DNA of 64,000 bases, taken from contig DATJLQ010000007.1 in assembly GCA_035509415.1 (NCBI GenBank), positions 696 through 64,695 on the forward strand. Direction: 5' to 3'. Source of the stretch: Alphaproteobacteria bacterium. GTDB taxonomy: Bacteria > Pseudomonadota > Alphaproteobacteria > JACZXZ01. This document shows positions 12,990 through 38,519 of the stretch, piece after piece. The stretch's first letter is position 1; every line of letters starts with the position of its first letter. Both the position numbers and the translations under genes were made by a program. A model generated the notes under the pieces. The model saw nothing but the letters and a program-made list of their open reading frames with translations, searched no databases and was not told the origin of the DNA.

Positions 12990-13045
12990 GCGGCACCGCC
13001 GGCATTCCCGCAACCGTCTATTCATCGAGCGCACGAGGAAAAACC

Positions 13046-14955: not shown

Positions 14956-14985
14956 AACGACACGCTCGCTTGGAAGGACGACGAG

Positions 14986-19648: not shown

Positions 19649-20863
19649 TCAATCGCGCGGCTTTGCGCCGTCGGAATAAACCGCGTCGCCGAGGAGGGCC
19701 CGCGCGGCCGTGAGCGCCGTGGGCTCGCGCGAGGCGCCGGGGCGGGCGAGGAAAGCGCGCGCATAGGCGTCGTAGGCCGCGTCGTCGAGCGTGGCCCAAT
19801 CGCGCGGCAACGCGGGCTCGGCCATGTCGAGCCGCGGCGCGCCGAGCCAGCTTGCGAAGCGCGCGATCGTGACGCCGTAGGGAGTCGCTTCCATCGCGGC
19901 GCCCGCGAGCAGCAGCACCGGCTTCCGGAACGCGACCGCGAAGCCGAGCGAGGTCGAGCAATGGGCGAGCACGAGACGCGCCCCCCGTACGAGCGCCGCC
20001 GTGCGGCCTTGCGCGATCTCGCGCCCGCCGAAGAGCTCGGCGGACCCGTAGCGCGCCTTGGGATGGGCGGCCACGACGACGTTGAGCCCGGTCTCGCGCT
20101 CGATGCGGTCGAAGGCGTTGCGCAGCAGCTCGAAATAGCGCTCCGGTGCGATGGGCGGCGGCGCCGCGCCGATGAGCGCGAAATCGGGATGGGATACGAA
20201 CATCTCATCGAGGAACACGGCATAGGCGCCGTCGGGTGCGGGCTCGGGCCGCGCCATCTCGGCGCGCGCGAGGCCCATGTCGAAGCTCTCGACGTCGACC
20301 ACGCGCGCGCGCGCGGGATGGGGGAAATGGGCCGTAAGCGCGCCGGGCGCATCCCCCGCCTTGAGCCAGATTGCCGGTGCGGCGAGTGCCGCGTAGCCGA
20401 GATCCCGGTCGAAGCGCCGGCACGCGAAACGCTTTGCGAGATGAGCCCAAAGGAGCGCATCCTGCGCGCGCGCGTGGAGATATTCATCCATGCCGCGCGT
20501 CGTCTTCCAGGGGCGGCGATGGAAAGTCGGGAGGGCGCCTTGGGTGAAGACCGCGTAGCGCACGCCCTTTCGCGCGAAGAGCCGGTAGAGCCAGGCGCTC
20601 TCATGATTGAGCGCCACGTCGGCCAGGACCGCGTCATGATCGGTGAGGCGCGCGAGATGGCTTTCGGCCGCCGCGACCGTTTGAGGCCGCACGGTGCTGG
20701 GGAAGAGAGGGGCTGCGGCCCCATCGACCGTGAGGCCGACCGGCCCATGGAGCTCGACGATCTCGACCTCGAGCCCGCGGCGCCGTGCCTCGTCGAGGCC
20801 GAGACGGGCCCAATCCCGCTCGGCGAACACGCCGCCATAGACGAAGACGATCCGGCTTGCCAT
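19649..20863 (-). CDS. Hypothetical protein. Possibly a GT-B-like glycosyl (ulosonic-acid) transferase.
   Basis: About 404 aa from the internal ATG at 20863. The ATG at 20941 would overlap the divergent ABC gene. The C-terminal half has Rossmann-like VVVAAHPKARYG...LVLAHCSTSLGFAVAFRKPVLLL. No confident family. Confidence 0.5.
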   Translation of the reverse strand: MASRIVFVYGGVFAERDWARLGLDEARRRGLEVEIVELHGPVGLTVDGAAAPLFPSTVRPQTVAAAESHLARLTDHDAVLADVALNHESAWLYRLFARKGVRYAVFTQGALPTFHRRPWKTTRGMDEYLHARAQDALLWAHLAKRFACRRFDRDLGYAALAAPAIWLKAGDAPGALTAHFPHPARARVVDVESFDMGLARAEMARPEPAPDGAYAVFLDEMFVSHPDFALIGAAPPPIAPERYFELLRNAFDRIERETGLNVVVAAHPKARYGSAELFGGREIAQGRTAALVRGARLVLAHCSTSLGFAVAFRKPVLLLAGAAMEATPYGVTIARFASWLGAPRLDMAEPALPRDWATLDDAAYDAYARAFLARPGASREPTALTAARALLGDAVYSDGAKPRD

Positions 20864-20940
20864 CGCGCGCGAGCCCCCGAGGACGCATGCCGCGCCCGTC
20901 ATATCGCACTCTCCGTGCGCCGCGCCAGGGGAATTCGGCA

Positions 20941-22779
20941 ATGAGGAACCGGCTCGCCGGCTATGTCGCCTTCGCGCGCCAATGCGCGACGCTGCTCGCC
21001 GACAACAAGGCGATCTTCGCCGTCTTCCTCGTGGTGTCGCTCCTGGGGGCGCTCACCGAGGGCCTCACCATCTCGCTCCTGGTGCCGATCCTCGACAACC
21101 AGGGCGGCCAGGGCTCGTTCGCCGGCGTTCCCTATTTCGGCGCCATCGCCGGCCTGTTCGGCGAGGTTTCGCCGAGCGAGCGCATCGAGATCGCCGCGAT
21201 CGCGATCGCGGTCCTGATCGTGCTCCGGAACCTGCTCCAATTCTCGGTCGACGCGTTGAGTGCCGTGATCCCGCTGCGCCTCCAGGAGAATTTCGCCAAC
21301 CGCGGCTACCGCGCGCTGATGGAGGTCGAGATCGGCTTCATCCACGCGCGCGAATACGGCGTGCTGTTCAACGGCGTGAGCGGCTGGGCCAAGGGTGTCA
21401 CGATGCTGCTCACCAACGTCGCGACCGTGGTGTGGGGAGCGCTCATCGTCGCGATCTACCTGGTCATGATGCTCGCGATCTCGGTGCCGCTCACGTTGCT
21501 CTCGATCGCGTTCATGGGCGGAATGTCGCTGGTGCTGCGCTGGCTGACCTCGGGGCCGCTCCGGCGCGCGGGCAAGCGCTCGAACGACGCGGTCGGCCGG
21601 GTCAACCAGCTGCTCATGGAATCGGTGGGCGGGATGAAGGTGATCCGCCTCGCGAGCGCCGAGACGACCATGATCGGCGCGTTCGGCGCCGCGGTCAGGA
21701 ACTCGCTCGAGGCCGAGCGCGGGGCGGCCAAGATCCAGGCGACCGTCCAGCCCGTGATGACGGCGGGCGCGGGACTGTTCATCTGCGCGCTCCTGCTTGG
21801 GAACGCGGCCTTCAACGCGTCGAACCCGAACGCCTGGGTCGGCTCGATCCTCCTGTTCCTGTTCCTGCTCTACCGCCTGGTGGGACCGATCGGCAACATC
21901 AACGGCGCGCGCGCGCGTATCGTCAAATACATCCATTCCTTCGACATGCTCAACGAATTCTACCGCGAGACCGCGGCGGCGCGGCAGCCCAACGGCACGC
22001 GCGCCTTCGAGGCCTGGCGCCGCGACATCGCGTTCGACCGCGTTTCCTTCGCCTACGCCAAGGCGGACGCGCCCGCGCTCCACGACGTCTCGACGCGCAT
22101 CGAGCGCGGCACGATGGTCGCGATCGTCGGCCCGTCGGGGGCCGGGAAGACAACCTTCATCTCGCTGCTCGCGCGCCTCTACGACCCGCGGGAGGGGAGC
22201 GTGCGCATCGACGGCACCGACCTCCGCGAATTCGACGTGCGCGGCTGGCGCCACCATTTGGCCGTGGTGACCCAGGACACCTTCATCTTCAACGACACCG
22301 CCGCGCGCAACATCGCGTTCGGGCGCGAGAACGCGACCCTCGACGAGATCCGCAACGCGGCCCGGCTCGCGGCCGCGGACGAGTTCATCGCCGGCATGCC
22401 CGAGGGCTACGACACGGTGCTCGGCGATCGCGGCGTGCGCCTTTCGGGCGGTCAGCAGCAGCGCATCGCGATCGCGCGCGCGGTGCTCGCGAACCCGGAC
22501 CTATTGATCCTCGACGAGGCCACGAGCCACCTCGATACCTTCACCGAGCGCGCGATCCAGGACGCGATCGATCGTGTGTCGCGCGAATGCACCGTGGTGG
22601 TGATCGCGCACCGCCTCTCGACCGTGCGCCGCGCCGACAAGGTGATCGTGATGGAGGGCGGACGCATCGTCGAGGAGGGATCGCACAAGGCGCTCATGGC
22701 GCGCCGCGGCCTCTATTGGGAGATGGTCGAGCATCAGCGCTTCGACATGTCGGACGAAGCGAGCGCGGCGTCGGCATGA
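20941..22779 (+). CDS. ABC transporter, fused permease/ATP-binding protein (type I exporter, MsbA-like).
   Basis: Six predicted TM helices, then Walker A (GPSGAGKTT), the ABC signature (LSGGQQQRIAIARA) and Walker B (ILDEATSHLD). Confidence 0.85.
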   Translation: MRNRLAGYVAFARQCATLLADNKAIFAVFLVVSLLGALTEGLTISLLVPILDNQGGQGSFAGVPYFGAIAGLFGEVSPSERIEIAAIAIAVLIVLRNLLQFSVDALSAVIPLRLQENFANRGYRALMEVEIGFIHAREYGVLFNGVSGWAKGVTMLLTNVATVVWGALIVAIYLVMMLAISVPLTLLSIAFMGGMSLVLRWLTSGPLRRAGKRSNDAVGRVNQLLMESVGGMKVIRLASAETTMIGAFGAAVRNSLEAERGAAKIQATVQPVMTAGAGLFICALLLGNAAFNASNPNAWVGSILLFLFLLYRLVGPIGNINGARARIVKYIHSFDMLNEFYRETAAARQPNGTRAFEAWRRDIAFDRVSFAYAKADAPALHDVSTRIERGTMVAIVGPSGAGKTTFISLLARLYDPREGSVRIDGTDLREFDVRGWRHHLAVVTQDTFIFNDTAARNIAFGRENATLDEIRNAARLAAADEFIAGMPEGYDTVLGDRGVRLSGGQQQRIAIARAVLANPDLLILDEATSHLDTFTERAIQDAIDRVSRECTVVVIAHRLSTVRRADKVIVMEGGRIVEEGSHKALMARRGLYWEMVEHQRFDMSDEASAASA

Positions 22780-23771
22780 CCGCATTTCCGAAGCGCGCCG
22801 CCGTCACCACGGCGCCGTTCGGCGCCCTCGACCCCGCGCCCCTCGAGCTCGCGGCGGCGGCGGGTGTCGCGCTCACGCTCAATCCCTACGGCCGGCGCCT
22901 CCAGGCGCACGAGGTCGCGGGCTTCCTCAAGGATCATCCGGTCGTGATCGCGGGCACCGAGCCGCTCAACGAAGCGGTGATGGACGCGTGCCCGGGGCTC
23001 AAGGCGATCTGCCGGGTCGGGGTCGGCCTCGACAGCGTGGATTTGAGTGCCGCGCGGCGGCGCGGCATCGCCGTCTCCTACACGCCCGACGCGCCCTCGA
23101 CCGCGGTCGCCGAGCTCGCGGTCGGCCTCATTCTCGATCTCTTGCGCGGCGTGGCGCCCGCGGACCGCGCGCTGCGCCAGGGCGAATGGACGCGCACGAC
23201 CGGCGCGCGCATCGCCCGCTCGACCGTGGGCGTGCTCGGCGTGGGACGCATCGGGCGGCGCGTCATCCACCATCTCCTCGGCGGATTCCCGGGCGTGCGC
23301 GTTCTCGCGCACGATCTCAATCCCGACCTGTCCCTCGACGGCGTCGAATGGGTCGACAAGGAGACGATCTATCGCACGGCGGACGTCGTCACCGTGCATC
23401 TGCCGCTCACCGCCGCGACCAAGGACCTGATCGGCGCGCGCGAGCTCGCCGCGATGCGGCCCTCGGCGGTGCTGGTGAACACGGCGCGTGGCGGCATCGT
23501 GAACGAGCGGGACCTTGCCGCGGCGCTTGCCCAAGGCGTCATCCAGGCCGCGGCGATTGACGTTTTCGAGCACGAGCCCTACAAGGGCCCGCTCGCTCAG
23601 TCGCCGCGTACGCTCCTGACCTGCCACATGGGCTCGATGACCGCCGATTGCCGCGCCCAGATGGAGACGGAGGCGATGCGCGAGGCGATCCGCTTTCTCG
23701 CGGGCGAGCCCTTCGCGTCGCCGGTACCGGACGAGGAATATGCCATTGCCGAGCAGCTTCACCGGGCTTGA
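22776..23771 (+). CDS. D-isomer-specific 2-hydroxyacid dehydrogenase (phosphoglycerate dehydrogenase-like).
   Basis: ATGA overlap. NAD-binding motif VGVLGVGRIGRRV and catalytic R/E/H motifs. The long ORF 20982-23771 is a frame fusion artefact. Confidence 0.8.
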   Translation: MTAFPKRAAVTTAPFGALDPAPLELAAAAGVALTLNPYGRRLQAHEVAGFLKDHPVVIAGTEPLNEAVMDACPGLKAICRVGVGLDSVDLSAARRRGIAVSYTPDAPSTAVAELAVGLILDLLRGVAPADRALRQGEWTRTTGARIARSTVGVLGVGRIGRRVIHHLLGGFPGVRVLAHDLNPDLSLDGVEWVDKETIYRTADVVTVHLPLTAATKDLIGARELAAMRPSAVLVNTARGGIVNERDLAAALAQGVIQAAAIDVFEHEPYKGPLAQSPRTLLTCHMGSMTADCRAQMETEAMREAIRFLAGEPFASPVPDEEYAIAEQLHRA

Positions 23772-24447
23772 GCGCGGCCTCGAGGCCGCGATCCTCGATT
23801 TCGACGGCGTCGTCGTCGAATCGACCGGGATCAAGACCGAAGCGTTCCGCGCGCTGTTCGCCGATTTCCCCGCGCGCGTCGACGCGATCGCGGCCCTCCA
23901 CCAGCGCCATGCGGGCGTCGACCGCTACGCCAAGTTCGACATGATTTATCGCGACATTCTCGGCCTGCCGCTTTCGGCCGAGACGCGGCGCGCGTTGGGC
24001 GAACGCTTCGCGCGTTTGGTCGAGGAGCGGGTCGTCGCCTGCCCGATGGTCGTCGGGGCCGGCGAGCTGCTGGCTTCCCTCGAGGGGCGCGTGCCGGTCG
24101 CAATCGCCTCGGCGACGCCCCAGGCCGAGATCGAGCGCATCGTCGCCAAACGCGGGCTCGGGCGATTCTTCGCCGCGGTACGCGGAAGCCCGCCGGACAA
24201 GACGGGCATCGTGCGGGCACTCCTGGCCGAGCGGGGCTGGAACCCATCGGCGACGCTCATGATCGGGGACGCGATCGCGGATTTCGAGGCGGCGCGCGCG
24301 AGCGGCCTCGCCTTCATCGGCCGCGCCGTGCCGGGCGAGCGCCATCCGTTCCCGGACGGCGTCGCGGTGGTCGACGATCTGACCGGCCTCGCCGCGACCC
24401 TTCTGGGCGATGCGCGCGGCACCATGCGCGCGAGGGCGATTTCATGA
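23740..24447 (+). CDS. HAD-superfamily hydrolase (phosphatase or beta-phosphoglucomutase-like).
   Basis: Motif I ILDFDGVVVEST plus later HAD motifs. The predicted start overlaps the upstream gene by 32 nt, so the true start may be downstream. Confidence 0.65.
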   Translation: MPLPSSFTGLERGLEAAILDFDGVVVESTGIKTEAFRALFADFPARVDAIAALHQRHAGVDRYAKFDMIYRDILGLPLSAETRRALGERFARLVEERVVACPMVVGAGELLASLEGRVPVAIASATPQAEIERIVAKRGLGRFFAAVRGSPPDKTGIVRALLAERGWNPSATLMIGDAIADFEAARASGLAFIGRAVPGERHPFPDGVAVVDDLTGLAATLLGDARGTMRARAIS

Positions 24448-25322
24448 GAATTCTCGTGACCGGCGGCAGCGGCTTCCTCGGCAGCCACGTCGCGGACGCG
24501 CTCACCGAGGCGGGCCACGAGACGATCGTGTTCGACCGCGCGCCGTCTCGCTGGATCGGGCCCAAGCAGCGCATGATCGTGGGCGACGTGCTCGATGCCG
24601 GCGCCGTCGCGACGGCGATGGAGGGATGCGGCGCCGTCTACCATCTCGCGGCCCTTGCCGACATCGACGCCGCGCTCGAGCGCCCGCGCGAGACCGTCGA
24701 GGTCAACATCATGGGCACGGTGAATTTGCTCGAGGCGGCGCGCGCGGCCAAGATCGGGCGCTTCGTGTTCTCGAGCTCGATCTACGTCTATTCGCGTCAG
24801 GGCTCGTTCTACCGCACCACCAAGCAGGCGTGCGAGCATTTGATCGAGGACTACCGCGAGCGCTTCGGCCTCGCCTACACGATCCTGCGTTACGGCTCGC
24901 TCTACGGACCGCGCGCCGACCGCAGCAACTATCTCCATAGCCTGCTCGCCCAGGCGCTCGAGGCGCGGCGCATGGACCATTACGGCACCGGCGACGAAGT
25001 GCGCGAGTACATCCACGTGCGCGACGCGGCCGCCATGAGCGTCGACGTGCTCGCGCCCGAGTTCGCCGACCAGATCATCCATCTCGCGGGCCGCGAGCGC
25101 ATGACCAGCCGCGACATGCTCGCCATGATCCGCGAGATGCTGGGCGGCGACGTGACGGTCAATTTCGAGAATGCCCTCTCGCCCGGCCATTACGTCCAGA
25201 CGCCGTACAACTACACGCCGCGGCTCGGCCGGCGCCTGACGCGCGACACCTACATCGACCTCGGCCTCGGGCTCCTCGATTGCCTGCAGCAGATCGACGC
25301 CGAGCGCACGCAAGAACGCTAG
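24444..25322 (+). CDS. NAD-dependent epimerase/dehydratase (SDR).
   Basis: ILVTGGSGFLGSHV motif and YxxxK (YRTTKQA). Confidence 0.8.
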   Translation: MRILVTGGSGFLGSHVADALTEAGHETIVFDRAPSRWIGPKQRMIVGDVLDAGAVATAMEGCGAVYHLAALADIDAALERPRETVEVNIMGTVNLLEAARAAKIGRFVFSSSIYVYSRQGSFYRTTKQACEHLIEDYRERFGLAYTILRYGSLYGPRADRSNYLHSLLAQALEARRMDHYGTGDEVREYIHVRDAAAMSVDVLAPEFADQIIHLAGRERMTSRDMLAMIREMLGGDVTVNFENALSPGHYVQTPYNYTPRLGRRLTRDTYIDLGLGLLDCLQQIDAERTQER

Positions 25323-25332
25323 GGAGCGAAGC

Positions 25333-26079
25333 ATGATCGTCGCCATCCTCATCGGCCGCGAAGGCTCGTCCGGCTATCCGGGGAAGAACGTGCTTCCGGT
25401 CCTGGGGAAGCCGCTGGTCGCCTGGCCGCTCGAGGCCGCGAAGTCGGTCGCCGAGATCGGACGCATCTACGTCTCGACCGATAGCCCGTCGATCAAGGCG
25501 ATCGCGCGCGAATACGGCGCACGCATCATCGAGCGGCCGGCCCATCTCGCGACCAAGGCGGCGCTCGGCGAGCACGCCTACGAGCATGCGCACCAGGTGA
25601 TCGCGGCCGAGCTCGCGCGCGAGGGGCAGACGGCCGAGCTCTACGTGCTGCTGATGGCGAACGCGCCGACCGTCTCGGCGGCGCAACTGCGCGAAGGCAT
25701 CGCGGTGCTGCGCGCCCATCCAGAGTACGATTCCGCGGTGACCGTGTCCTGCTACAACATGTGGAGCCCGTTGCGCGCGCGCAAGATCGGTGCCGACGGG
25801 CTCCTGCATCCCTTCGTGCCGTTCGAGACGTTCGGCGATCCGAAGACGCTCAATTGCGACCGCGACAGCCAGGGCGATTCCTGGTTCGCCGACATGGGCG
25901 TGTCGATCGTGCGGCCGAAGAATCTCGACCGGCTCGAGGACGGGCTTCTGCCGCAGAAATGGATGGGCCAGAAAATCTACCCGATCAGGAACGAAGGCGG
26001 GCTCGACGTCGATTATCCGTACCAGATGCCGCAAGCCGAGTTCTGGCTCAAGGCCCAGGGCGGCACCAAGGGGAAATGA
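25333..26079 (+). CDS. Acylneuraminate cytidylyltransferase-family protein (second CMP-sugar-acid synthetase paralogue).
   Basis: N-terminal AILIGREGSSGYPGKN matches the family motif. Confidence 0.8.
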   Translation: MIVAILIGREGSSGYPGKNVLPVLGKPLVAWPLEAAKSVAEIGRIYVSTDSPSIKAIAREYGARIIERPAHLATKAALGEHAYEHAHQVIAAELAREGQTAELYVLLMANAPTVSAAQLREGIAVLRAHPEYDSAVTVSCYNMWSPLRARKIGADGLLHPFVPFETFGDPKTLNCDRDSQGDSWFADMGVSIVRPKNLDRLEDGLLPQKWMGQKIYPIRNEGGLDVDYPYQMPQAEFWLKAQGGTKGK

Positions 26080-27221
26080 CCGTGCCCAAGCGCGAGGACG
26101 GCGGCGCTCCAAGGATGGGCGCGGCCCCGCGGCCCCGGGACCATCTCGCCGGCTTGAGCCGCGACAGCGATTGTCTCGGCGAGCGCACGCGCTTCGTGTG
26201 CCTCGACCGGAACGAGCGGCCGAGCGCGTGGCCGGAGGCGGATTTCCGCGCGGCCCTCGCGACCCTCAAGCCGACCGACTTCAATCATTATCCCGATCTC
26301 GGCCCGCTCTATGAGCGGCTGGTGCGCGCGACCGGCTTGCCCCAGGCGCGGCTTGCGGTGGGTGCCGGCTCGGACGCCCTCATCCGGCGCGCGCTTCACG
26401 CCTATCTCAGGCCAGGCGACAAGCTGCTCTCGCCCGATCCGAGCTACGGCATGTACGCGGTGTGGGCGCGTATCTTCGAGGCGGAGCATGTCGCGGTCCC
26501 CTACGGCGCCGATCTGCGTCTCGACCTCGACGGCTTCATCGCGCGCATCGAGACGGCGCGGCCGCGCGTGGTCGCGATCGCCAACGCCGACCAACCGACC
26601 GGCGCCATGCTCGCGCGCGACTCCCTGCTCGCCATCGTCGATGCCTGCGCGCGCATGGGCGCGTTGTGCCTCGTCGACGAGGCCTATCACCCGTTCTCGC
26701 CCGTGACCCTGCTCGGCGACGTGCGCGACCGTCCGTCGCTCCTGGTGCTGCGTAGCTTCTCCAAGAGCGGCGGCATCGCGGGCCTGCGCGTCGGCTTCGC
26801 CGCGGGCGACGCGGAGGCGATCCGCGCCCTCCACGCCGTGCGCAGCCCGGGCGAGGTCGCCTCGCTCTCGGCCGCGATCGCCTGCTACCTGCTCGACCGG
26901 CCGGAGATTTTCGAGCGCCATCGCGCCGAGGTCGAGGAGGGGCGCGCGCGCCTCCTCGCGGCGGCGGCGTCGCTCGGCTTCGAATGCCCGCCCTGCCACG
27001 GCAATTTCCAGCTCGTGCGCACGGCGCCGCTCGCGCCCAAGGCGCTCGCCGCAGCCCTCGAGCGGCGCGGCTACCTCGTCCGCGCCGGCTTCGGCTTCGC
27101 GCCCCTCAAGGACGCGATCCGCGTGACGCTCGACGGCCCGGCGGTGATCGATCCCTTCGTCGCGGCGCTCGAGGAAAGCTGCGCCGAGCTGCGCGCGGCC
27201 GCGGCACCCGCCGGCACCTGA
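26076..27221 (+). CDS. HisC-like class I/II PLP-dependent aminotransferase (CobD-type decarboxylase not excluded).
   Basis: ATGA overlap. PLP-lysine region SFSKSGGIAGLRVGF is typical of histidinol-phosphate aminotransferase and CobD homologues. Confidence 0.75.
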   Translation: MTVPKREDGGAPRMGAAPRPRDHLAGLSRDSDCLGERTRFVCLDRNERPSAWPEADFRAALATLKPTDFNHYPDLGPLYERLVRATGLPQARLAVGAGSDALIRRALHAYLRPGDKLLSPDPSYGMYAVWARIFEAEHVAVPYGADLRLDLDGFIARIETARPRVVAIANADQPTGAMLARDSLLAIVDACARMGALCLVDEAYHPFSPVTLLGDVRDRPSLLVLRSFSKSGGIAGLRVGFAAGDAEAIRALHAVRSPGEVASLSAAIACYLLDRPEIFERHRAEVEEGRARLLAAAASLGFECPPCHGNFQLVRTAPLAPKALAAALERRGYLVRAGFGFAPLKDAIRVTLDGPAVIDPFVAALEESCAELRAAAAPAGT

Positions 27222-27266
27222 GCGCGCCCAGATCGTTCGCCCGGATTCCCCGACCGAGGAGCCACT

Positions 27267-28358: not shown

Positions 28359-28361
28359 AAG

Positions 28362-31024: not shown

Positions 31025-31097
31025 CGCGCGCCCCGAAATCCGAAGAATTCCAGCGATCATTGCGCGCCCGAGCGCGCGCCCCCAGAGGAGAACGACC

Positions 31098-31973
31098 ATG
31101 ACCGCCCAGCCCGTCCGCATCGGCAAGAAGTCCGTCGGTCCCGGCCAGCCCTGCTACATCGTGGGCGAGATCGGCATCAACCACAATGGCGACCTCGCGA
31201 TCGCGAAGAAGCTCATCGACCGAGCGGTCGAATTCGGCTTCGACGCGGTCAAGTTCCAGAAACGCACGGTCGACGTGGTCTACACGCCCGAGGATCTGGC
31301 GCGCGAGCGCGAATCGCCGTTCGGCAGCACCAATGGCGACCTGAAACGCGGCCTCGAGTTCGGCGCGGCGCAATACAAGGAAATCGATGCGTATTGCCGC
31401 GCGCACGGCATCGATTGGTTCTGCTCGCCCTGGGACGAGGGCAGCGTCGACTTTCTCGAGCGCTTCGACCCCGTATGCTACAAGATCGCGTCGGCCTGCC
31501 TGACCGACGACGGGCTCCTCAAGCACATCAAGGCCACGAAGCGTCCGATCGTCCTCTCGACCGGCATGAGCACGCTCGACCAGATCGACCGCGCGGTCGC
31601 GATCCTCGAGGGCACGCCGCTCATCCTTCTCCACACCAACTCGACCTATCCCTCGAAGCACGAGGAGCTCAACCTCTCGGTGATTGCGAGCTTGCGCGCG
31701 CGTTACGGGAAGCCGGTCGGCTACAGCGGCCACGAGCCGGACGTGATCCCATCGGTCATGGCGGCGTCTGCCTACGACGCCTGCATGGTCGAGCGCCACA
31801 TCACCCTCGACCGCGCGATGTGGGGCACCGATCAGGCGGCGAGCCTCGAGCCGCGTGGCATGGAGCTGATGGCGAAATACATCCGCACTTGGGAAGTGGT
31901 GCGCGGCGACGGCAAGAAGCGCGTTTACGACAGCGAGATCCCGATCCTCAAGAAGCTGCGCCGGGTCGGCTGA
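31098..31973 (+). CDS. NeuB-family sugar-acid synthase lacking a C-terminal SAF domain (KDN/Neu5Ac-9-phosphate-synthase-like or PseI-like).
   Basis: RBS AGGAG 7 nt upstream. N-terminal CYIVGEIGINHNGDL and the NeuB TIM-barrel core. 291 aa, with no SAF domain. Confidence 0.8.
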   Translation: MTAQPVRIGKKSVGPGQPCYIVGEIGINHNGDLAIAKKLIDRAVEFGFDAVKFQKRTVDVVYTPEDLARERESPFGSTNGDLKRGLEFGAAQYKEIDAYCRAHGIDWFCSPWDEGSVDFLERFDPVCYKIASACLTDDGLLKHIKATKRPIVLSTGMSTLDQIDRAVAILEGTPLILLHTNSTYPSKHEELNLSVIASLRARYGKPVGYSGHEPDVIPSVMAASAYDACMVERHITLDRAMWGTDQAASLEPRGMELMAKYIRTWEVVRGDGKKRVYDSEIPILKKLRRVG

Positions 31974-31990
31974 GGCGCGCACCCATTCCC

Positions 31991-33148
31991 ATGACCGCGA
32001 CGCTCCGCCTTCTGCATTTGGTGAACAGCCACAGCACCAACGTGGGCAATGGGGCGCTCGCCGACGGTGCCGAGCGCGTGCTGGGCGAGGATCTGGCGGC
32101 ACCGGTCTCGTGGTCGCGCGTGCCGTGGGACGATTACACCTTCGGGCTCAAGAAATTCGATCGGGATTTCGTAGGCGCGATCAACCGCTCGGACGGCATG
32201 ATCGTGGGCGGTGCGGTCACGATCAACGGGCGCGCCTATCTCGAGCACGCGGGCATGCGCTTCGACCTTCCGCCAGCGCTTTGGCCGGAGATCCGTAAAC
32301 CATTGATCTTCTACGGGATTTCCTACCGACATTGGGCGGGCCAGCGGTTCCATCACGCGGACAAGCTGCGTTGGGCGTTCGACCACGCGCTCGGGCGCCA
32401 AGACATGCTGCTCGCGTTGCGCAACGACGGCACGCGCGAATGGCTCGAAGGCGCGCTCGGCATCGCGAGCGATCGGCTCCACGTAATCCCCGATCCCGCG
32501 GTGTTCGTCGAAGCCGACGACGCGGCGGCCGCGGCGGACGATCTTGCGCTCGATCCCGGGCGACCCAACATCGTGCTCGCCCTCAACGACGAGGATTCGG
32601 CCGAGCGCTACGGCACACCCGAGCGGCGCATGGAAGTGCTGCGCGGGATTGCCCAGGCGCTCGAGCCCGTGCTCGATGCGCGCGGCGCAAATCTCGTCTT
32701 GGCGCCCCATTATTTCGACGATCATCGCATGATCGCCGACTTCATCGCGTGCTGCCGCCCGCAGCTCGCGCACCAGCGCATGATCTCGACCGGCCTCGCG
32801 CGCATGGCGGACGCGAAGCGCTTCTACGGCCGCTACGCCCGTGCCCAGCTCGTGATCGCGATGCGCGTCCACGCCATGTCGCCCTCGATCGGCCTCGGCG
32901 TGCCGATGATCCCGCTCGTGACCCAGGACCGGCTCGGCCGCTTTCTCGACGATGTCGGCTTGGGCGACCTGGCGATCGACGCGCTCGCACCCGATCTCGC
33001 GGGTCGCCTCCGCGTTGCCATCGAGGCGGCGCTCGACCGGCCCGACGAGCTGCGGCGCCGCTTCCGCGTCACGCGCGACGGCATGCGCGCGCGGCTCGGT
33101 GCCTTCAATCGAAAGGTGGGGGAATTGCTTCATGGCCAAACGCGCTAA
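31991..33148 (+). CDS. Polysaccharide pyruvyl transferase family protein (CsaB/WcaK-like).
   Basis: 385 aa. PS_pyruv_trans-like pattern (LHLVNSHSTNVGNGAL...). Confidence 0.7.
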   Translation: MTATLRLLHLVNSHSTNVGNGALADGAERVLGEDLAAPVSWSRVPWDDYTFGLKKFDRDFVGAINRSDGMIVGGAVTINGRAYLEHAGMRFDLPPALWPEIRKPLIFYGISYRHWAGQRFHHADKLRWAFDHALGRQDMLLALRNDGTREWLEGALGIASDRLHVIPDPAVFVEADDAAAAADDLALDPGRPNIVLALNDEDSAERYGTPERRMEVLRGIAQALEPVLDARGANLVLAPHYFDDHRMIADFIACCRPQLAHQRMISTGLARMADAKRFYGRYARAQLVIAMRVHAMSPSIGLGVPMIPLVTQDRLGRFLDDVGLGDLAIDALAPDLAGRLRVAIEAALDRPDELRRRFRVTRDGMRARLGAFNRKVGELLHGQTR

Positions 33149-33644
33149 GTCCGCCGCGCGTCCGCGTCTCGATCCGGCGCGCGTGGCGCTCATCGTGTTC
33201 GATTTCGACGGCGTGCTCACCGACAACCGCGTGCTTGTGCTCGAGGACGGACGCGAGGCGGTCCTTTGCAGCCGCGCCGACGGGCTCGGCTTCGACGCGT
33301 TGCGCGCGGCGCGCATTCCGACGCTCATTCTCTCGACCGAGCGCAATCCGGTGGTGGCGGCGCGCGCGCGAAAGCTCGGCGTGCCGGTGCTCCAGGCGGT
33401 CGCCGACAAGGCGCAGGCGCTCGAGGCCCATTGCATTGCCGCGGGCATCGCGCTCGCGAGCGTGGTCTATGTCGGGAACGACCTCAACGATCTCAAGGCC
33501 ATGGGGACGGTCGGGCATCCGGTCGCGGTCGCCGACGCCCATGAGCGTGTGCGTAAGGCGGCGCGTTACGTGCTTAAAGCGGCGGGCGGCGAGGGGGCCG
33601 CGCGCGAGCTGGTCGAGCGGCTCATGGGCCTCGCGGTCGGATAG
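33132..33644 (+). CDS. KdsC-family HAD-IIIA phosphatase (3-deoxy-ulosonate-phosphate or acylneuraminate-9-phosphate phosphatase-like).
   Basis: Motif I VFDFDGVLTDN and C-terminal GNDLNDL motif as in KDO-8-P and KDN-9-P phosphatases. Confidence 0.8.
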   Translation: MAKRAKSAARPRLDPARVALIVFDFDGVLTDNRVLVLEDGREAVLCSRADGLGFDALRAARIPTLILSTERNPVVAARARKLGVPVLQAVADKAQALEAHCIAAGIALASVVYVGNDLNDLKAMGTVGHPVAVADAHERVRKAARYVLKAAGGEGAARELVERLMGLAVG

Positions 33645-33647
33645 GCG

Positions 33648-34394
33648 ATGGCCGAGATTCTCGCCCTCATTCCCGCGCGCGGCGGGTCGAAGTCGATCCC
33701 GCGCAAGAACCTGCTCCCGCTCGCGGGGCGGCCGCTCATCGTCCATTCGATCGAGCAGGCGCGCGCCTCGCGCCTGGTTTCGCGCGTGATCGTCACGACC
33801 GACGACGCCGAGATCGCGGCGGTCGCCAAGGCGGCGGGTGCCGAGGTGCCGTTCTTGCGGCCCGCCGAGCTCGCGCGCGACGACTCCCTCGACATCGAGT
33901 TTCATCGCCACGCGCTCGACTGGCTCGGCGCGCAAGAGCGCTATCGGCCCGACGCCGTCGTCAATCTTCGGCCCACCAATCCGACCCGGCGCCCCGCGAC
34001 CATCGACCGCGCGATCGAGACGTTCCTCGCCCATCCCGAGGCGGATTCGCTCCGCTCGGTCTCGCTCGCCGAGCAAACGCCCTACAAAATGTGGCTCATC
34101 GGCGCCGATGGCTGCTTGGCGCCGGTGGCCGCGCTCCCGGGCACGACCGAGCCCTACAACCTTCCGCGCCAGCGCCTGCCGCTGGTCTATTGGCAGAACG
34201 GCTATGTCGACATCGCCTGGACGCGCACCGTGATGGAGAAGCAATCGACCACGGGGACGCGCATCCTGCCCTTCGTGATCGAGGAGCGGAGCGTCGACAT
34301 CGACTATCCGGACGAGGTCGCGGACGCCGAACGCGCCATCGCCGAGGGCGACGCCGAGGCGAACGGCTCGGCCGGAAAGCGTCACCCGTCATGA
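33648..34394 (+). CDS. Acylneuraminate cytidylyltransferase-family protein (third paralogue).
   Basis: N-terminal LALIPARGGSKSIPRKN. Confidence 0.8.
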   Translation: MAEILALIPARGGSKSIPRKNLLPLAGRPLIVHSIEQARASRLVSRVIVTTDDAEIAAVAKAAGAEVPFLRPAELARDDSLDIEFHRHALDWLGAQERYRPDAVVNLRPTNPTRRPATIDRAIETFLAHPEADSLRSVSLAEQTPYKMWLIGADGCLAPVAALPGTTEPYNLPRQRLPLVYWQNGYVDIAWTRTVMEKQSTTGTRILPFVIEERSVDIDYPDEVADAERAIAEGDAEANGSAGKRHPS

Positions 34395-35422
34395 AGTTCC
34401 TCGTTTGCGGCCTGGGCTCGATCGGCCAGCGCCATGTGCGCGTGCTGCGCTCGCTCCTCGGCGACGAGGCCACGATCTACGTCCATAGGAAACGCGGCCT
34501 CGACATCGTCATCAACGACGACATGACGGCGATCCAGGGCCGCGATCCGGTCGCCCATTACGGGCTCATCGACGAGCCGTCCTTCGAGCGCGCCCTTGAG
34601 CGCGAGCTCGATGCCGTGCTGGTGACCAATCCGATCTCGATGCATGTGGAAACCGCGCTCGCCGCGGCCGAGCGCGGGCACAATCTCTTCATCGAGAAAC
34701 CCTTGGGCGCCTCGCTCGACGGGGTCGAGCGGCTCGAATCGCTGGTCGCGCGGAGCGGGCTCGTGACCCATGTGGGCTATCAGCTGCGCTTCCATCCCGC
34801 CCTGCGCCTGATGCGCGAGCTGTTGCAGGAGGGTGCCATCGGCGATCCGATCGCCGCGGAGGTCCATTTCGGCGAATGGCTGCCGGGCATGCACCCCTAC
34901 GAAGATTACCGCACGAGCCATGCGGCGCGGCGTGACCAGGGTGGGGGTGCCATCCTGTGCCTGAGCCACGACATCGATTACGCCACGTGGTTGTTCGGCC
35001 TGCCGAGGGTGCTGTTCGCGGTCGGCGGCAAGCTTTCCGATCTCGAGATGGACGTCGAGGACACGGCCTCGATCCTGATGCAATGCGGCGCGAGCGGCCG
35101 GCCGGTGCCGGTCCAGGTCCATGTCGACTTCGTCCAACGCGTGCCGCGGCGGTTTTGTCGCATCGCCGGCACGCGCGGCACGATCGCGTGGGATTATCAC
35201 CGGAACCAGGTGACGATCGTGGATGCGGCCGGGAACGAGACAGAGCGGAGCTTCCCCGGCTGGCAGCGCAACGACATGTTCCGGGCCCAGATGGCCCATT
35301 TCATCGCCTGCCTCGGCGGCGCGGAGCGGCCGCAGATCCCCGTTTCGGCCGGGGCCGCGACGCTCAGAGTCTGCCTGGCGGCGAAGCAATCCCTCGAGAC
35401 CGGGAAGGCGGTGACCCTATGA
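34391..35422 (+). CDS. Gfo/Idh/MocA-family oxidoreductase.
   Basis: ATGA overlap. KFLVCGLGSIGQRHV Rossmann fold and EKP motif. Confidence 0.8.
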   Translation: MKFLVCGLGSIGQRHVRVLRSLLGDEATIYVHRKRGLDIVINDDMTAIQGRDPVAHYGLIDEPSFERALERELDAVLVTNPISMHVETALAAAERGHNLFIEKPLGASLDGVERLESLVARSGLVTHVGYQLRFHPALRLMRELLQEGAIGDPIAAEVHFGEWLPGMHPYEDYRTSHAARRDQGGGAILCLSHDIDYATWLFGLPRVLFAVGGKLSDLEMDVEDTASILMQCGASGRPVPVQVHVDFVQRVPRRFCRIAGTRGTIAWDYHRNQVTIVDAAGNETERSFPGWQRNDMFRAQMAHFIACLGGAERPQIPVSAGAATLRVCLAAKQSLETGKAVTL

Positions 35423-36267
35423 GCACGAGCTCCAAGGACGGCGGCGTCGGCGCGCGCTTCCGCCTCGACGGCAAGGTGATCGCGATCACCGGCGGCGGCG
35501 GCTTCTTGGGCCCGCGCCACGCCGAGGCGATCGCGGAAGCGGGCGGCGTTCCGGTGCTGCTCGACATCAGGCGCGCGGCAGCCGAGGCGGCAGCGGCGGC
35601 GATCTCGAAGACCGGCGCCGAGGCACTCGGCCTCGGCTGCGACATCACCGACCCGGCCGCGGTGCGCGCCGCGCTCGCTACGGTGCTCGCGCGTTACGGC
35701 CGCATCGACGGGCTCGTCAACAACGCCGCCAACGATCCCAAGGTCGACACCGACGGCGCGGTCCAGAATTCGAGCCGGCTCGAGACCTTCCCGCTCGCGC
35801 TCTGGAACGCGGACCTCGCGGTCGGGCTCACGGGCGCTTTCGTGTGCGCGCAGGCGTTCGGCGGCGAGATGGCGCGCCGGCGCTCGGGCGTCATCCTCAA
35901 CATCGCGTCCGACCTCGCCGTGATCGCGCCCGACCAGCGCCTCTATCGCCAGCCCGGCCTCGCGCCCGAGGCGCAGCCGGTCAAGCCCGTGACCTATTCG
36001 GTGTTCAAGGCCGGGCTCCTGGGCCTCAACCGCTATCTCGCGACCTATTGGGCCGAGGCGGGGGTGCGCGTCAACGCGCTCTCGCCGGGCGGCGTCCATA
36101 ACGGCCAGGACGACGCCTTCGTCGCGCGCCTCGCGGACCTGATCCCGCTCGGCCGCATGGCGCGCGCGGACGAATACAAGGCGGCCGTCGTGTTCCTGCT
36201 GTCCGACGCTTCGTCCTACATGACCGGCGCCAACCTGGTCATGGATGGCGGCCGCAGCACCTGGTAG
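35419..36267 (+). CDS. SDR-family oxidoreductase (short-chain dehydrogenase).
   Basis: ATGA overlap. Motifs VIAITGGGGFLG, NNAA and YSVFK (YxxxK). Confidence 0.8.
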   Translation: MSTSSKDGGVGARFRLDGKVIAITGGGGFLGPRHAEAIAEAGGVPVLLDIRRAAAEAAAAAISKTGAEALGLGCDITDPAAVRAALATVLARYGRIDGLVNNAANDPKVDTDGAVQNSSRLETFPLALWNADLAVGLTGAFVCAQAFGGEMARRRSGVILNIASDLAVIAPDQRLYRQPGLAPEAQPVKPVTYSVFKAGLLGLNRYLATYWAEAGVRVNALSPGGVHNGQDDAFVARLADLIPLGRMARADEYKAAVVFLLSDASSYMTGANLVMDGGRSTW

Positions 36268-36311
36268 CGCGCAGGACCGCGCAACAAGAAACGGAAACGG
36301 GCCGCATCGAG

Positions 36312-37613
36312 ATGGTTAAAAGAGTTTATTTCCACATCGACGAGGTGGCGCGCGATTCGGTCGTCGCCGCCAATCTGAAGCGCGTGCTGGCGGCGCGCGG
36401 CATCGAGCTCGTCTACGGCAACCGGCCGTCGAGCCGGTTCCTGCCGCGCGTGTGCCCGTTCGACGCGCTCGTCCTGCCGACCGTGCAGTTCGTCCAGGCG
36501 GTCGCCCCGGATCCCACGGCTCCCATGCCGCCCATGATCGTGCTGCCGACCGAGGGCATCGGCGGCATTCCCGAGGACCCGAAGCGCGCGGCGTTGAAGT
36601 TCCTGGGCGATCCCTTCATGGCCGGCGACCGGCGCTGGGTCGAGAAGGTCGCGGCCTTTTGCCTCTGGGGCAAGCAGCAGCTCATCGGCTTCGAGCAGTT
36701 CGCGCCCCATCTCGCGGATCGCTGCCACGTGATCGGCCATCCGCGCTTCGACCGGCGCTGCCTGCCGCGGCCGCGGCCGCGCGCGGCGAGCGGCGACGGG
36801 ACCGTGCGCATCGGGCTCCTGACCCGCTACTCGATGCTCAACCCGTTCGACGGGCGCACGGCCTTGACCTATGTCCACTCGGCGCGCCGCTCCAAATTCC
36901 ACCATATCCAGCTGCAGCCCGACCCGACCCTCGATATCGAGGATCTTTATTTCACCAACGTGTCGGATTTGCGCGTCACCTTCGATCTCATCGACCGGCT
37001 CGACCCGCAACGCCATCGCGTGGCGCTACGCATCCATCCGCGCGAGGACCGCACCCATTGGGAAGCGCTGGCGGCGGCGCAGCGTCTGCCGATCTCGATC
37101 GCACCCTGGGACCAGCCCTTCATCCATTGGCTCGAGGAGGTCGACTGGATGGTGGCCCCGCCCTCCACCAGCTTCTACGACGCCTTCGTCATGGGAAAAC
37201 CGGTGGTCTGCATCGATCGCATCGCGCCCAAGCGCAAGGCGCATGTGCTGCCCTTGAGCGACGATTCCTCGCGCATCATCGATTACACGTTCCGGCCCAA
37301 GAGCTTGGACGAGCTCATGGCCCTGATCGCGCGCCCGCCGGCCGGGCCGGTCGAGCTCTCGGCGCCGGTCGCAACGCTTCTCGCCAACGACGCCCATTAC
37401 CCCGAGTGCGGCCGCTCGCTCGACGCGCTCGCCGACGTGTGCGAGCTCGTGATGCGCGCGCACCCGGTCGAGCAGCGCGCGTCCGAAAGTCTCCGCTACG
37501 GGCTCCTCACCGCGGTCGACGGGCTGCGCCAGCGCCGGATGGTGGACCAGGGGGCCTGGTTCCGGCTCGACCGCGGCCGGCGCCGCTGGATCGACGGGCT
37601 GGCGGCCGTCTAG
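36312..37613 (+). CDS. Hypothetical protein (433 aa). A candidate surface-carbohydrate biosynthesis protein or glycosyltransferase.
   Basis: No defined motif. Last gene of the long plus-strand operon. Confidence 0.5.
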   Translation: MVKRVYFHIDEVARDSVVAANLKRVLAARGIELVYGNRPSSRFLPRVCPFDALVLPTVQFVQAVAPDPTAPMPPMIVLPTEGIGGIPEDPKRAALKFLGDPFMAGDRRWVEKVAAFCLWGKQQLIGFEQFAPHLADRCHVIGHPRFDRRCLPRPRPRAASGDGTVRIGLLTRYSMLNPFDGRTALTYVHSARRSKFHHIQLQPDPTLDIEDLYFTNVSDLRVTFDLIDRLDPQRHRVALRIHPREDRTHWEALAAAQRLPISIAPWDQPFIHWLEEVDWMVAPPSTSFYDAFVMGKPVVCIDRIAPKRKAHVLPLSDDSSRIIDYTFRPKSLDELMALIARPPAGPVELSAPVATLLANDAHYPECGRSLDALADVCELVMRAHPVEQRASESLRYGLLTAVDGLRQRRMVDQGAWFRLDRGRRRWIDGLAAV

Positions 37614-38428: not shown

Positions 38429-38519
38429 GGCTTGGCCCCGGGCTCGAAAGCGGCCGGCATCATAGGTCGGCGGCCGCGTCGTGACAATCGTTTGGCTGCC
38501 GGCTCCTGCGTCGCGGCGC

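Follow-up and report, generated by a model that had tools for sequence, protein, structure and literature searches.

Three probable transferases of activated acids in a sugar-acid island of an uncultured alphaproteobacterium

The island and its biosynthetic modules

The three proteins considered here, termed A, B and C, are encoded in an island of an uncultured alphaproteobacterium, within a window of 64,000 nt (the whole stretch of contig DATJLQ010000007.1 that was analysed). Their genes occupy positions 19649-20863 on the minus strand (A, 404 aa), 29144-31024 on the plus strand (B, 626 aa) and 36312-37613 on the plus strand (C, 433 aa). Spurious long ORFs are common at the window's G+C content of 70%; the frames and strands of A, B and C are backed by third-position GC and the GC1>GC2 pattern of a frame plot, and the three ORFs singled out by the first-pass annotation are real genes. 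Homologue alignments begin at residue 1 in each case, which supports the predicted start codons.

Each gene adjoins a set of biosynthetic genes. Upstream of A lies a legionaminic-acid-type module (10077-19637, plus strand) that encodes a PglD-like N-acetyltransferase, a CBS-nucleotidyltransferase protein (PtmE-like), an Fe-ADH, a DegT protein and cytidylyltransferase 1 (14293-14955), followed by a 4,6-dehydratase-type SDR, a second DegT protein, a hydrolysing 2-epimerase and NeuB1 (18564-19637), which scores above the TIGR03569 cut-off. Just 11 bp separate the NeuB1 end of this module from the 3′ end of the convergent gene A. On the other side of A, 77 bp away and divergent, is a gene for a fused TMD-NBD ABC exporter of 612 aa (20941-22779, plus strand); at syntenic loci the B-module operon begins with this exporter gene. 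The B module itself (22776-29147, plus strand) comprises a PGDH-like 2-hydroxyacid dehydrogenase, a HAD protein, an SDR, cytidylyltransferase 2 (25333-26079), a HisC/CobD-like PLP enzyme, a GFO/IDH/MocA oxidoreductase and a methyltransferase whose stop codon overlaps the ATG of B (ATGA). Between B and C, the C module (31098-36267, plus strand) carries a short NeuB2 that lacks a SAF domain, a pyruvyl-transferase-like protein, a KdsC/Kdn-9-P-phosphatase-like HAD (start probably at 33183), cytidylyltransferase 3 (33648-34394), a GFO/IDH/MocA protein and an SDR. At the level of gene content, the earlier proposal that the island makes several CMP-activated acids is thus sound, given its three CTP_transf_3 cytidylyltransferases, two NeuB synthases, hydrolysing 2-epimerase and KdsC/Kdn-9-P-phosphatase-like HAD. 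All of the cytidylyltransferases belong to CTP_transf_3, the CMP-ulosonate synthetase family, with PseF and KdsB as their best NCBIfam matches, and no TagD- or IspD-type enzyme was found in the island.

Fold and conserved motifs

None of the three proteins has a significant Pfam family, in agreement with the first-pass annotation, which had seen no classical GT2 or GT4 motifs in them, and all of their matches to named families fall below curated cut-offs. No profile search placed A, B or C in a kinase, hydrolase or other non-transferase family, the kind of assignment that would speak against the transferase role first proposed for them. The Rossmann-like halves that had been anticipated are borne out for B and C, whose AlphaFold2 models (pLDDT 88.9 and pTM 0.89 for B; pLDDT 94.5 and pTM 0.93 for C) match GT-B structures. 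Across the two models, over 140 PDB entries matched at E≤1e-3, every one a GT-B-type enzyme, with Foldseek E values in the range of about 1e-8 to 1e-7 (~1e-7 for B). The B model consists of one GT-B unit (residues ~205-590) preceded by a distinct N-terminal alpha/beta domain and a long helix (residues 1-200). For C, the top matches are TagF-like capsule polymerases, one of which was solved with CMP, followed by 2-epimerases and TagF. The closest solved structures are TagF-like polymerases (TagF, Bcs3, Cps3D) and NeuC/WecB-type 2-epimerases; unlike those systems, A, B and C have CMP-ulosonate-type cytidylyltransferases as genomic partners. Searches of the PDB sequence set with single sequences and profiles of all three families gave only noise.

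A conserved motif signature was found in the three families, which supersedes the earlier remark, attached to the KpsS/KpsC comparison, that there was no confirming motif. The His-Pro of A aligns in register with those of B and C, and the three align over a common HP...ST core with scores of 29-39, relative to 20 or less for reversed profiles and unrelated proteins. The likeness of A to B and C extends over only ~70-80 residues (E 4e-4 to 8e-3), and the A-B profile alignment has no confident columns beyond this core. In C, the motif takes the form (K/R)XHP (Arg240-Ile-His242-Pro243; 37029-37040, plus strand), with R/K, H and P each conserved in 100% of 50 members and the first position being R in 82% and K in 18%. 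In A, His267-Pro268 (VVVAAHPKA; 20060-20065, minus strand) is conserved at 96% and 99% in the family as A-A-H-P, with R/K at +2 in 95%. In B, His487-Pro488 (30602-30607, plus strand) is invariant in nine close homologues and conserved at 89% and 91% in 74 wider loci. Position -2 of the HP is N in B itself (N-Y-H-P), and in its wider family it is K/R in 44% and N in 45%, so that the full (K/R)XHP form, which is common to sialyltransferases and Kdo transferases (PMC12887879), belongs to the C family only. Absence of K/R at -2 in A and B is still compatible with membership of that group, as KrkA has Ser at this position (PMC12887879).

A downstream Ser/Thr pair accompanies the HP in every case. 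It is Ser285-Thr286-Ser287 in C (37164-37172, plus strand; 100/100/94% conserved), 43 residues after His242; Thr534-Ser535 in B (30743-30748, plus strand), 47-48 residues after the HP, where 94% of the wider family has S/T at the Ser535 column; and Ser303-Thr304 in A (19952-19957, minus strand; 92%/90% conserved), at +36/37. In the retaining ulosonic-acid transferases GT99, GT107, GT118 and GT140, an HP motif is followed ~44 residues downstream by a Ser pair that binds the CMP phosphate, with a spacing of 44 between His227 and Ser271 of KrkA (PMC12887879). By analogy, A, B and C probably share the type of HP...S/T core with which sialyl- and Kdo-transferases hold CMP.

Each protein also has a conserved block of charged residues outside this core. 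In A, FLD219-E220....H225-P-D227 (20183-20209, minus strand; D 97%, H 90%, D 96%) may contain catalytic or sugar-binding residues. The EHQPWEK block in the N-terminal Rossmann domain of B (30215-30235, plus strand) is a candidate acceptor or catalytic site; it is invariant in close homologues, and its 100% conservation in the wider loci is circular because the block was itself the search pattern. In C, the four charged residues of D10-E11-V-A-R14-D15 (36339-36356, plus strand), in a loop after the first N-terminal strand, are invariant and could provide a catalytic base or acceptor site.

Protein families and their genomic partners

Protein A appeared to be an orphan when a word-indexed homologue search gave two hits, a picture overturned by an exhaustive HMMER search (E≤1e-3), which recovered at least 3,083 cluster representatives, most of them full-length. 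These represent at least 3,000 clusters at 50% identity, spread over Alphaproteobacteria, Bacteroidota and methanogenic archaea, and profile searches with A led to no family of Pfam or NCBIfam. A-family loci were located with a pattern from a 20-sequence subset, since a 92-sequence alignment had no conserved stretch, and 55 of them span at least 18 kb. A NeuB gene is situated within 10 kb in 48 of these 55 (87%), in both bacteria and archaea. Other frequent neighbours are a CMP-synthetase (42/55), a PtmE-like protein (33/55) and a 2-epimerase (32/55). As a control, NeuB was found in four of 23 B-family loci. The gene for one A homologue, P0064, comes immediately after a complete Leg-type operon, with every step of the pathway already provided for. 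No match to A or C turned up among 72,556 plasmids searched by tblastn, which gives no link to the rhizobial plasmid-borne K-antigen regions.

NeuB is seldom found near B-family genes, and where it does occur, a canonical Epimerase_2 is present too. Its partners form a conserved module of one specific cytidylyltransferase type with dehydrogenase, HAD, SDR and aminotransferase genes. The cytidylyltransferase nearest to a B-family gene is of the window's type 2 in 22 of 26 loci; when pairing of each family with its own cytidylyltransferase was tested, it held only for this combination, as type 3 scores nearest for A and C merely because it is the most canonical sequence. At three loci (L169, L171 and L003), the type-2 enzyme adjoins a pyruvate aldolase (HpcH_HpaI or HMGL-like). 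A 502-aa unannotated gene at B's module position in L169 is not significantly B-like (E=0.031). The PGDH-like, HisC/CobD-like and HAD partners of B could yield a phosphorylated non-sugar donor. By sequence, B matches TIGR04326 (E=1.3e-13, 50.2 bits; cut-off 250) at positions 329-578 of the 602-position model only; this covers 250 residues in the C-terminal part of the model and leaves the N-terminal ~340 residues of B unmatched.

The C family is a sister clade of TIGR04396, the BFO_1060 family and GT38. All 50 members match TIGR04396, to which C itself scores 45.6 bits against a cut-off of 125, and many C homologues bear that name in JGI annotation. TIGR04396 and TIGR04326 are both uncharacterised "surface carbohydrate biosynthesis proteins", and our literature search found no paper on either; searches with TIGR/LIC family names and for recent Leg/Pse transferase families likewise found nothing covering these clades. 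The BFO_1060 / Tanf_01245 family of Tannerella forsythia (NCBIfam NF046086), genetically implicated in the transfer of Pse/Leg derivatives during protein O-glycan synthesis (PMC5420450), resembles C in size (~430-450 aa), in its GT-B/TagB-like fold, in its HP motif and in its position beside nonulosonic-acid genes. Of the C family, 41 of 50 members match it (best E=1.7e-12), but C itself reaches only 15.4 bits against a cut-off of 200, and the DXD and D/E-D/E-G motifs of the Tannerella enzymes were not identified as conserved in the C family. C is thus a distant relative rather than a member, and A and B have no detectable match to the BFO_1060 family.

Similarly, the GT38 alpha-2,8-polysialyltransferases (PF07388) share with C the GT-B fold and the (K/R)XHP motif. 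They match 22 of 50 C-family members weakly across the HP region (best 2.5e-5) and C itself at 16.7 bits (gathering 23.3; E=0.0057) over residues 210-256 (~47 residues), as befits a remote relative. The N-terminal D/E-D/E-G motif of GT38 and bacterial sialyltransferases is lacking in C, which has T80-E81-G82, with E81 invariant, T/S at position 80 and S/G/T at position 82, and, as a separate invariant acidic cluster, D10-E11...D15. GT38 enzymes are found in Neu5Ac capsule loci, whereas C belongs to an unusual short-NeuB/phosphatase module, and a polymerase role for C is unsupported. CTP_transf_3 is nearby in all eight C-family loci examined and NeuB in seven of them. The C-module gene set also lies beside C-family genes in L170 and L171, the latter of which holds a B-family and a C-family member together with two cytidylyltransferases.

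Candidate functions and significance

Taken together, A, B and C most likely attach activated acids to a surface glycan. We consider it somewhat probable (roughly 60%) that they are soluble or peripheral GT-B-fold transferases, each using the cytidine-nucleotide-activated acid of its adjacent module. The earlier argument that the CMP-activated acids call for dedicated transferases fits C best, A reasonably and B loosely. It gains from the GT-B folds of B and C, the HP...S/T core of all three and the remote kinship of C to Pse/Leg transferases and polysialyltransferases; for B, whose wider family NeuB does not accompany, ulosonic-acid transferase is a candidate assignment only. Close linkage to biosynthetic genes would suit a transferase no better than an enzyme of tailoring or of a late biosynthetic step.

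An unlikely alternative is a biosynthetic role for at least one of the proteins, with B as the likeliest case: as a nucleotide-sugar hydrolase or 2-epimerase resembling NeuC/LegG or PseG, it would release a sugar substrate for a synthase and transfer nothing to a glycan. UDP-GlcNAc 2-epimerases are prominent among the Foldseek matches of B and C, with NeuC (5zlr) at rank 2 for B, and the HP-bearing strand is not specific to transferases, since it is also present in NeuC-type epimerases. Indeed, TVTVNYHPATGE of B aligns with VVVTYHPATLE of the window's own NeuC/LegG-type enzyme in a profile alignment of 64 columns that includes an identical YHPAT (score 30.3, E=0.005), and A has local profile similarity to LegG (E=0.014). 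Moreover, the modules downstream of A include NeuB2 but no recognisable Epimerase_2 or PseG, and B lies directly upstream of NeuB2. However, none of the three reaches even E≤1 with Epimerase_2 (PF02350) or Glyco_tran_28_C, against 3e-93 for the genuine LegG. The scarcity of NeuB near B-family genes, and the canonical Epimerase_2 that accompanies it there, also speak against this role, as do the completeness of the pathway without A in A-family loci and the sequence relatives of C, which are transferases and not epimerases. Judging by NCBIfam matches, the NeuB2/phosphatase/cytidylyltransferase set could start from a sugar phosphate and dispense with a hydrolysing epimerase.

Equally improbable is a TagF/TagB-like phosphotransferase role for B or, with lower likelihood still, for C, in which an alcohol- or acid-phosphate unit from a CDP-activated non-sugar donor would be added in place of glycosylation with a CMP-ulosonic acid. 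This would accord with the TagF-like polymerases and TagF among the best structural matches of C, and with the phosphoglycerate-dehydrogenase-like enzyme, HAD phosphatase and HisC/CobD-like PLP enzyme beside B, the last from a group that acts on phosphorylated substrates. A small NTP_transferase-like gene also follows B in many loci, and the Tannerella transferases were first recognised by their TagB-superfamily domain (PMC5420450). Against it, Pfam searches gave no Glyphos_transf match for any member of the A, B or C families, the three cytidylyltransferases in the island are of the PseF/KdsB-like type, and the pyruvate aldolase beside type-2 cytidylyltransferases points to a 2-keto-3-deoxy acid as the donor.

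The size-based suggestion of the first-pass annotation, that the proteins are KpsS/KpsC-type retaining beta-Kdo transferases (GT107), is very improbable and was rejected: although sizes are roughly alike, the HP motif is common to GT99 and GT107 and three of nine B-family members touch Capsule_synth at E≥0.013, none of A, B and C matches Capsule_synth (PF05159) significantly, B is one GT-B unit with an extra N-terminal domain rather than two tandem modules (~675 aa) as in GT107 KpsC, and the QXXXD nucleophile of retaining Kdo transferases is absent, the strand-loop before the HP reading AVFLDE..HPD in A, ILCCT(S/G)I(D/E)LxESIE in B and IGLLTRxxxLN in C. The N-terminal domain of GT99 and GT107 enzymes is reduced and displaced (PMC12887879), whereas the B and C models match canonical, not modified, GT-B enzymes, a difference that extends to the whole group of retaining ulosonic-acid transferases with CMP-activated donors, GT99 (WbbB), GT107 (KpsC/KpsS), GT118 (KpsS1, Pse) and GT140 (KrkA).

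For A, B and C as transferases, we infer catalytic activity, donor and acceptor identity, residue roles, stereochemistry and membrane topology. The donor of A would be a legionaminic-type acid from the upstream module, that of B whatever cytidylyltransferase 2 activates, and that of C the product of the short-NeuB, KdsC-like phosphatase and cytidylyltransferase-3 module. The C-terminal Rossmann domain would hold the nucleotide, whose phosphate would be contacted by the HP histidine together with the Ser/Thr pair that follows it, and whose cytosine, in C, would be contacted by the Arg at position -2 from that histidine. The N-terminal domain would hold the acceptor and supply catalytic carboxylates (D10/E11/D15/E81 in C; E358/E363 in B). 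The acceptor would be a growing glycan, probably lipid-linked, at the cytoplasmic face, and the product may then be flipped or exported by the fused ABC exporter, whose gene lies between A and the B module.

A broader hypothesis, which we offer tentatively and rate at somewhat below an even chance, is that the A family is an unrecognised glycosyltransferase family, a general non-flagellar legionaminic-acid transferase of Bacteria and Archaea, and that the B family is a second new family for a different CMP-acid made without a NeuB synthase. The A family would add legionaminic acid, a sialic-acid-like sugar, to lipid-linked surface glycans, and B points to a further activated acid.

Nonulosonic acids such as legionaminic and pseudaminic acid decorate many bacterial and archaeal surfaces and shape immune and phage recognition. 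To our knowledge, the enzymes that attach them have been described for few systems, namely Maf proteins on flagellins, KpsS1 (GT118) and the Tannerella enzymes. A 2018 study of archaeal N-glycans stated that the legionaminic acid transferase was unidentified in any organism that uses the sugar for protein glycosylation (PMC6137143). The island described here offers three concrete candidates, one from a large family that has neither a Pfam nor an NCBIfam model. If the transferase role is not confirmed, A, B and C stay ordinary hypothetical GT-B proteins; if it is confirmed for A, this family would make glycan structures predictable from genomes and would provide new enzymes for chemoenzymatic legionaminic-acid glycoconjugates and probably a new CAZy family.

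Coding sequences and biosynthetic modules

The window has a G+C content of ~70%, so that chance alone leaves long frames open in each of the six reading frames. GC content at the third codon position, together with GC1 exceeding GC2, marks which frame is coding in this region and bears out the coordinates, frames and strands of the three ORFs that the first-pass annotation had proposed as novel glycosyl or ulosonic-acid transferases: A (19649-20863, minus strand, 404 aa), B (29144-31024, plus strand, 626 aa) and C (36312-37613, plus strand, 433 aa). Their start codons are also supported, since homologue alignments begin at the first residues, and the ATG of B overlaps the stop codon of the upstream methyltransferase gene. 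The original observation is confirmed. Database records identical to these proteins carry only the name "hypothetical protein."

Annotation of the neighboring genes with Pfam and NCBIfam delineated three biosynthetic modules. The first, of legionaminic-acid type (10077-19637), contains a PglD-like acetyltransferase, CBS-nucleotidyltransferase, Fe-ADH, two DegT aminotransferases, a dehydratase-type SDR, a cytidylyltransferase, a hydrolysing 2-epimerase and NeuB, which scores above the NeuB/LegI-type equivalog cut-off. We take these genes to be PtmE/LegB/C/G/H/I/F-like, after the Campylobacter pathway. A is convergent with this module, 11 bp from its end, and divergent from a fused ABC exporter, with 77 bp between them. 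The second module (22776-29147), followed by B, encodes a phosphoglycerate-dehydrogenase (PGDH)-like enzyme, HAD, SDR, second cytidylyltransferase (25333-26079), HisC/CobD-like PLP enzyme, GFO/IDH/MocA oxidoreductase and methyltransferase. The third (31098-36267), followed by C, has genes for a short NeuB that lacks the SAF domain, a pyruvyl-transferase-like protein, a HAD resembling KdsC/Kdn-9-P phosphatase, a third cytidylyltransferase, an oxidoreductase and an SDR. Because three such modules could be annotated, the premise that the island makes several CMP-activated acids needing transferases holds at the gene level. Two GT4 genes, one GT2 gene and LptD/F/G flank the island.

Several other features were observed in and around the island. 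The ABC exporter gene (20941-22779, plus strand) opens the B-module operon in syntenic loci (L005, L091, and L111), in the order ABC, dehydrogenase, HAD, SDR, cytidylyltransferase and, further on, B; its product may act as a PglK/MsbA-like flippase once the lipid-linked glycan is complete. Two ORFs listed as 31991-33148 and 32952-33644 show an apparent 197 bp overlap. In the latter, the KdsC-like match runs only from about residue 77 onward, so the true start is probably 33183, leaving no real overlap. At 37610-39440 (minus strand), a PhyH-family dioxygenase gene, convergent with C and overlapping it by 4 bp, and then a methyltransferase gene possibly encode tailoring enzymes for the glycan or acid; a GT2 gene (39550-40455) comes after this pair. 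Directly upstream of the island, genes for a CysD-like protein (PAPS_reduct domain) and a CysN/CysC fusion (GTPase and APS kinase; 2498-5202, plus strand) suggest a dedicated PAPS supply, and the island possibly makes a sulfated glycan. No sulfotransferase was identified, and a Pfam search of a nearby 316-aa ORF (8615-9565, minus strand) returned no match. Elsewhere, a 373-aa protein (47441-48562, plus strand) weakly matches the RuBisCO large-chain catalytic domain (E = 6e-21) and is probably RuBisCO-like (form IV) rather than a carboxylase. Across 60000-64000, where further ORFs lie at 61912-62937 and 63307-63939 (both minus strand), G+C drops from ~0.70 through 0.62 to 0.56 at the end, and this DNA may be foreign or recently acquired. 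The window has no tRNA or Rfam matches.

Family searches and the shared nucleotide-binding core

The earlier remark that A, B and C lack GT2 and GT4 motifs agrees with our Pfam search, which assigned none of them significantly to any family, including GT2, GT4, Capsule_synth, Epimerase_2 and Glyphos_transf. NCBIfam gave sub-threshold matches only: B to TIGR04326, over 250 C-terminal positions of the model (E = 1.3e-13; 50 bits vs. a cut-off of 250), and C to TIGR04396 (45.6 vs. 125) and, faintly, to the BFO_1060 family. Both TIGR models describe uncharacterised surface carbohydrate biosynthesis families. No PDB chain was detectable for the three by sequence or family profile, and a literature search found no experiment or solved structure for their clades; we infer the donors, acceptors and catalysis of all three. 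The suggested likeness to KpsS and KpsC did not survive. None of the three gives a significant Capsule_synth match, none has in its C-terminal domain the QXXXD nucleophile motif by which retaining Kdo transferases are defined, and the model of B is not that of a two-module protein. Together these results speak against a KpsC/KpsS-type identity.

Pairwise BLAST among A, B and C found nothing significant. In all three profile-profile comparisons, one shared stretch of ~70-80 residues aligned in a common register, with HP on HP and S-T on S-T (scores 29-39, E from 4e-4 to 8e-3), with no confident extension beyond this core. Reversed profiles and unrelated window proteins scored ≤20, so the similarity is real, though limited to the central part of the nucleotide-binding domain. 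The B profile also matched the window's NeuC/LegG-type epimerase with a similar score (30.3, E = 0.005), aligning TVTVNYHPATGE of B with VVVTYHPATLE, and the S-T block of A aligned more weakly with the same enzyme. The HP strand is therefore common to a broader GT-B/epimerase superfamily and no proof of transferase activity.

Protein C, a predicted nonulosonic-acid transferase

The proposal that all three are dedicated acid transferases is supported in part, and best for C, which very probably is an ulosonic/nonulosonic-acid transferase. An AlphaFold2 model built from a 50-sequence alignment (mean pLDDT 94.5, pTM 0.93) matched only GT-B-type enzymes in the PDB by Foldseek, led by the TagF-like capsule polymerase multienzymes 8a0m, 8a0c (a CMP complex) and 8qoy (E ~2e-8) and followed by UDP-GlcNAc 2-epimerases, SenB and TagF. 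When 50 family members were scanned separately, only three models recurred, all weakly: TIGR04396 (50/50), the BFO_1060 family (41/50, best 1.7e-12) and the GT38 polysialyltransferase PF07388 (22/50, best 2.5e-5). Knock-outs of the BFO_1060 family in Tannerella lose the terminal Pse or Leg derivative of the O-glycan (PMC5420450). Sialyltransferases (GT29/38/42/52/80) and retaining Kdo transferases (GT99/107) share a (K/R)XHP motif, whose His, with a Ser pair, binds the CMP phosphate (PMC12887879). In the C family, R/K-x-H-P is present in 100% of members, and S-T-S (100/100/94%) lies 43 residues past it, compared with 44 from His227 to Ser271 in KrkA (PMC12887879).

Eight C-family loci were examined, the window and seven homologues at 30-41% identity. 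A CTP_transf_3 gene lies within ~10 kb in 8/8 and NeuB is present in 7/8; two homologues sit directly after a pseudaminic-type operon, and the window's C-module gene set recurs in two loci (L170 and L171). C is thus placed in a sister clade of TIGR04396, the BFO_1060 family and GT38, a member of none, and is predicted to be a new addition to the nonulosonic-acid transferases, a group known only loosely so far. Genes of the LIC12162 family (PF27859; "LIC12162 family transferase" in NCBIfam) repeatedly adjoin C-family genes (L007, 13975-15720; L170, 16134-16930), so that nonulosonic-acid loci hold a further candidate transferase family, likewise uncharacterised.

Proteins B and A

A word-indexed search found only nine relatives of B. 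Its AlphaFold2 model is nevertheless confident (pLDDT 88.9, pTM 0.89) and has an extra alpha/beta domain and long helix over residues 1-200, then one GT-B unit, with generic GT-B Foldseek matches (a GT4 mannosyltransferase, NeuC, 2-epimerases, trehalose-6-P synthase and GT1 enzymes). Close homologues keep H487-P488 and S535 without exception; across 74 metagenomic loci, H is kept in 89%, P in 91% and S/T at the S535 column in 94%, with K/R at the -2 position in 44%. Unlike those of A and C, B-family loci seldom carry NeuB (4/23 long loci). Their conserved neighbors are a PGDH-like dehydrogenase, SDR, HAD, HisC/CobD-like enzyme and, specifically, the window's second cytidylyltransferase type. 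Identity of this type between loci is 56-87%, against only 24-55% for B in those loci, and in 22/26 loci no other cytidylyltransferase lies nearer; an NTP_transferase-like gene and a GT2 gene usually come after B. B is, then, a GT-B enzyme with a functional link to a single cytidylyltransferase, and a candidate transferase. In three loci (L003/L004, 7545-10008; L169, 9598-11134; L171, 13193-15690), the gene of that cytidylyltransferase type adjoins a pyruvate aldolase gene (HpcH_HpaI or HMGL-like), which hints that an unusual 2-keto-3-deoxy acid, formed independently of any NeuB-type synthase, is activated with CMP; no aldolase of this kind is encoded in the B module of the window. One of these loci, L171 (Logan SRR24750911), carries both a B-family gene (673-2625, minus strand; hhalign 97%, HP motif KPHP) and a C-family gene (8001-9335, plus strand), with two cytidylyltransferases, a short NeuB, an HpcH_HpaI aldolase, a pyruvyl-transferase-like gene, an ABC exporter and an MptE-like (Maf-related) gene.

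As the HP strand does not prove transferase activity, two rival readings stay alive, mainly for B. One is a nucleotide-sugar hydrolase/epimerase, which is disfavored by the lack of Epimerase_2 profile matches and by the rarity of NeuB near B-family genes. The other is a TagF-like phosphotransferase, which is disfavored by the lack of Glyphos_transf matches and by the island's cytidylyltransferases, all of CMP-ulosonate type. We regard A and B as unmodelled or uncharacterised families of the GT-B, cytidine-nucleotide-dependent kind.

A word-indexed search found two relatives of A, and an exhaustive HMMER search 3,083 cluster representatives at E ≤ 1e-3 (1,971 at E ≤ 1e-10), mostly of ~400 aa and matched end-to-end. 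No Pfam match recurred among 92 members, three of which weakly touched TIGR04326. Conserved blocks read AVFLD(E/Q)....HPD, VVIAAHP(R/K) and H-x-S-T...FAV..(R/K)KP. Eighty loci, each from a distinct GTDB species, included bacteria (Omnitrophota, Syntrophia, Bacteroidota, Magnetospirillum, Gammaproteobacteria) and archaea (Methanoperedens, Methanolobus, Methanoregula). Cultivable species with an A-family gene include Paramagnetospirillum caucaseum, Flavobacterium limi, Capnocytophaga bilenii and Methanolobus psychrotolerans. Sequence of 18 kb or more was available for 55 loci, and NeuB was present in 48 of these, vs. 17% of the B-family loci used as control glycan loci; a CMP-synthetase was present in 42/55, a PtmE-like nucleotidyltransferase in 33/55 and a NeuC/LegG-type epimerase in 32/55. 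At one locus (P0064), the A-like gene comes after a complete Leg-type operon and overlaps an ABC exporter gene; the Leg-type pathway there is complete without it. A is the more interesting lead, since its family is large, extends across both Bacteria and Archaea and is tightly linked with clusters of legionaminic type.
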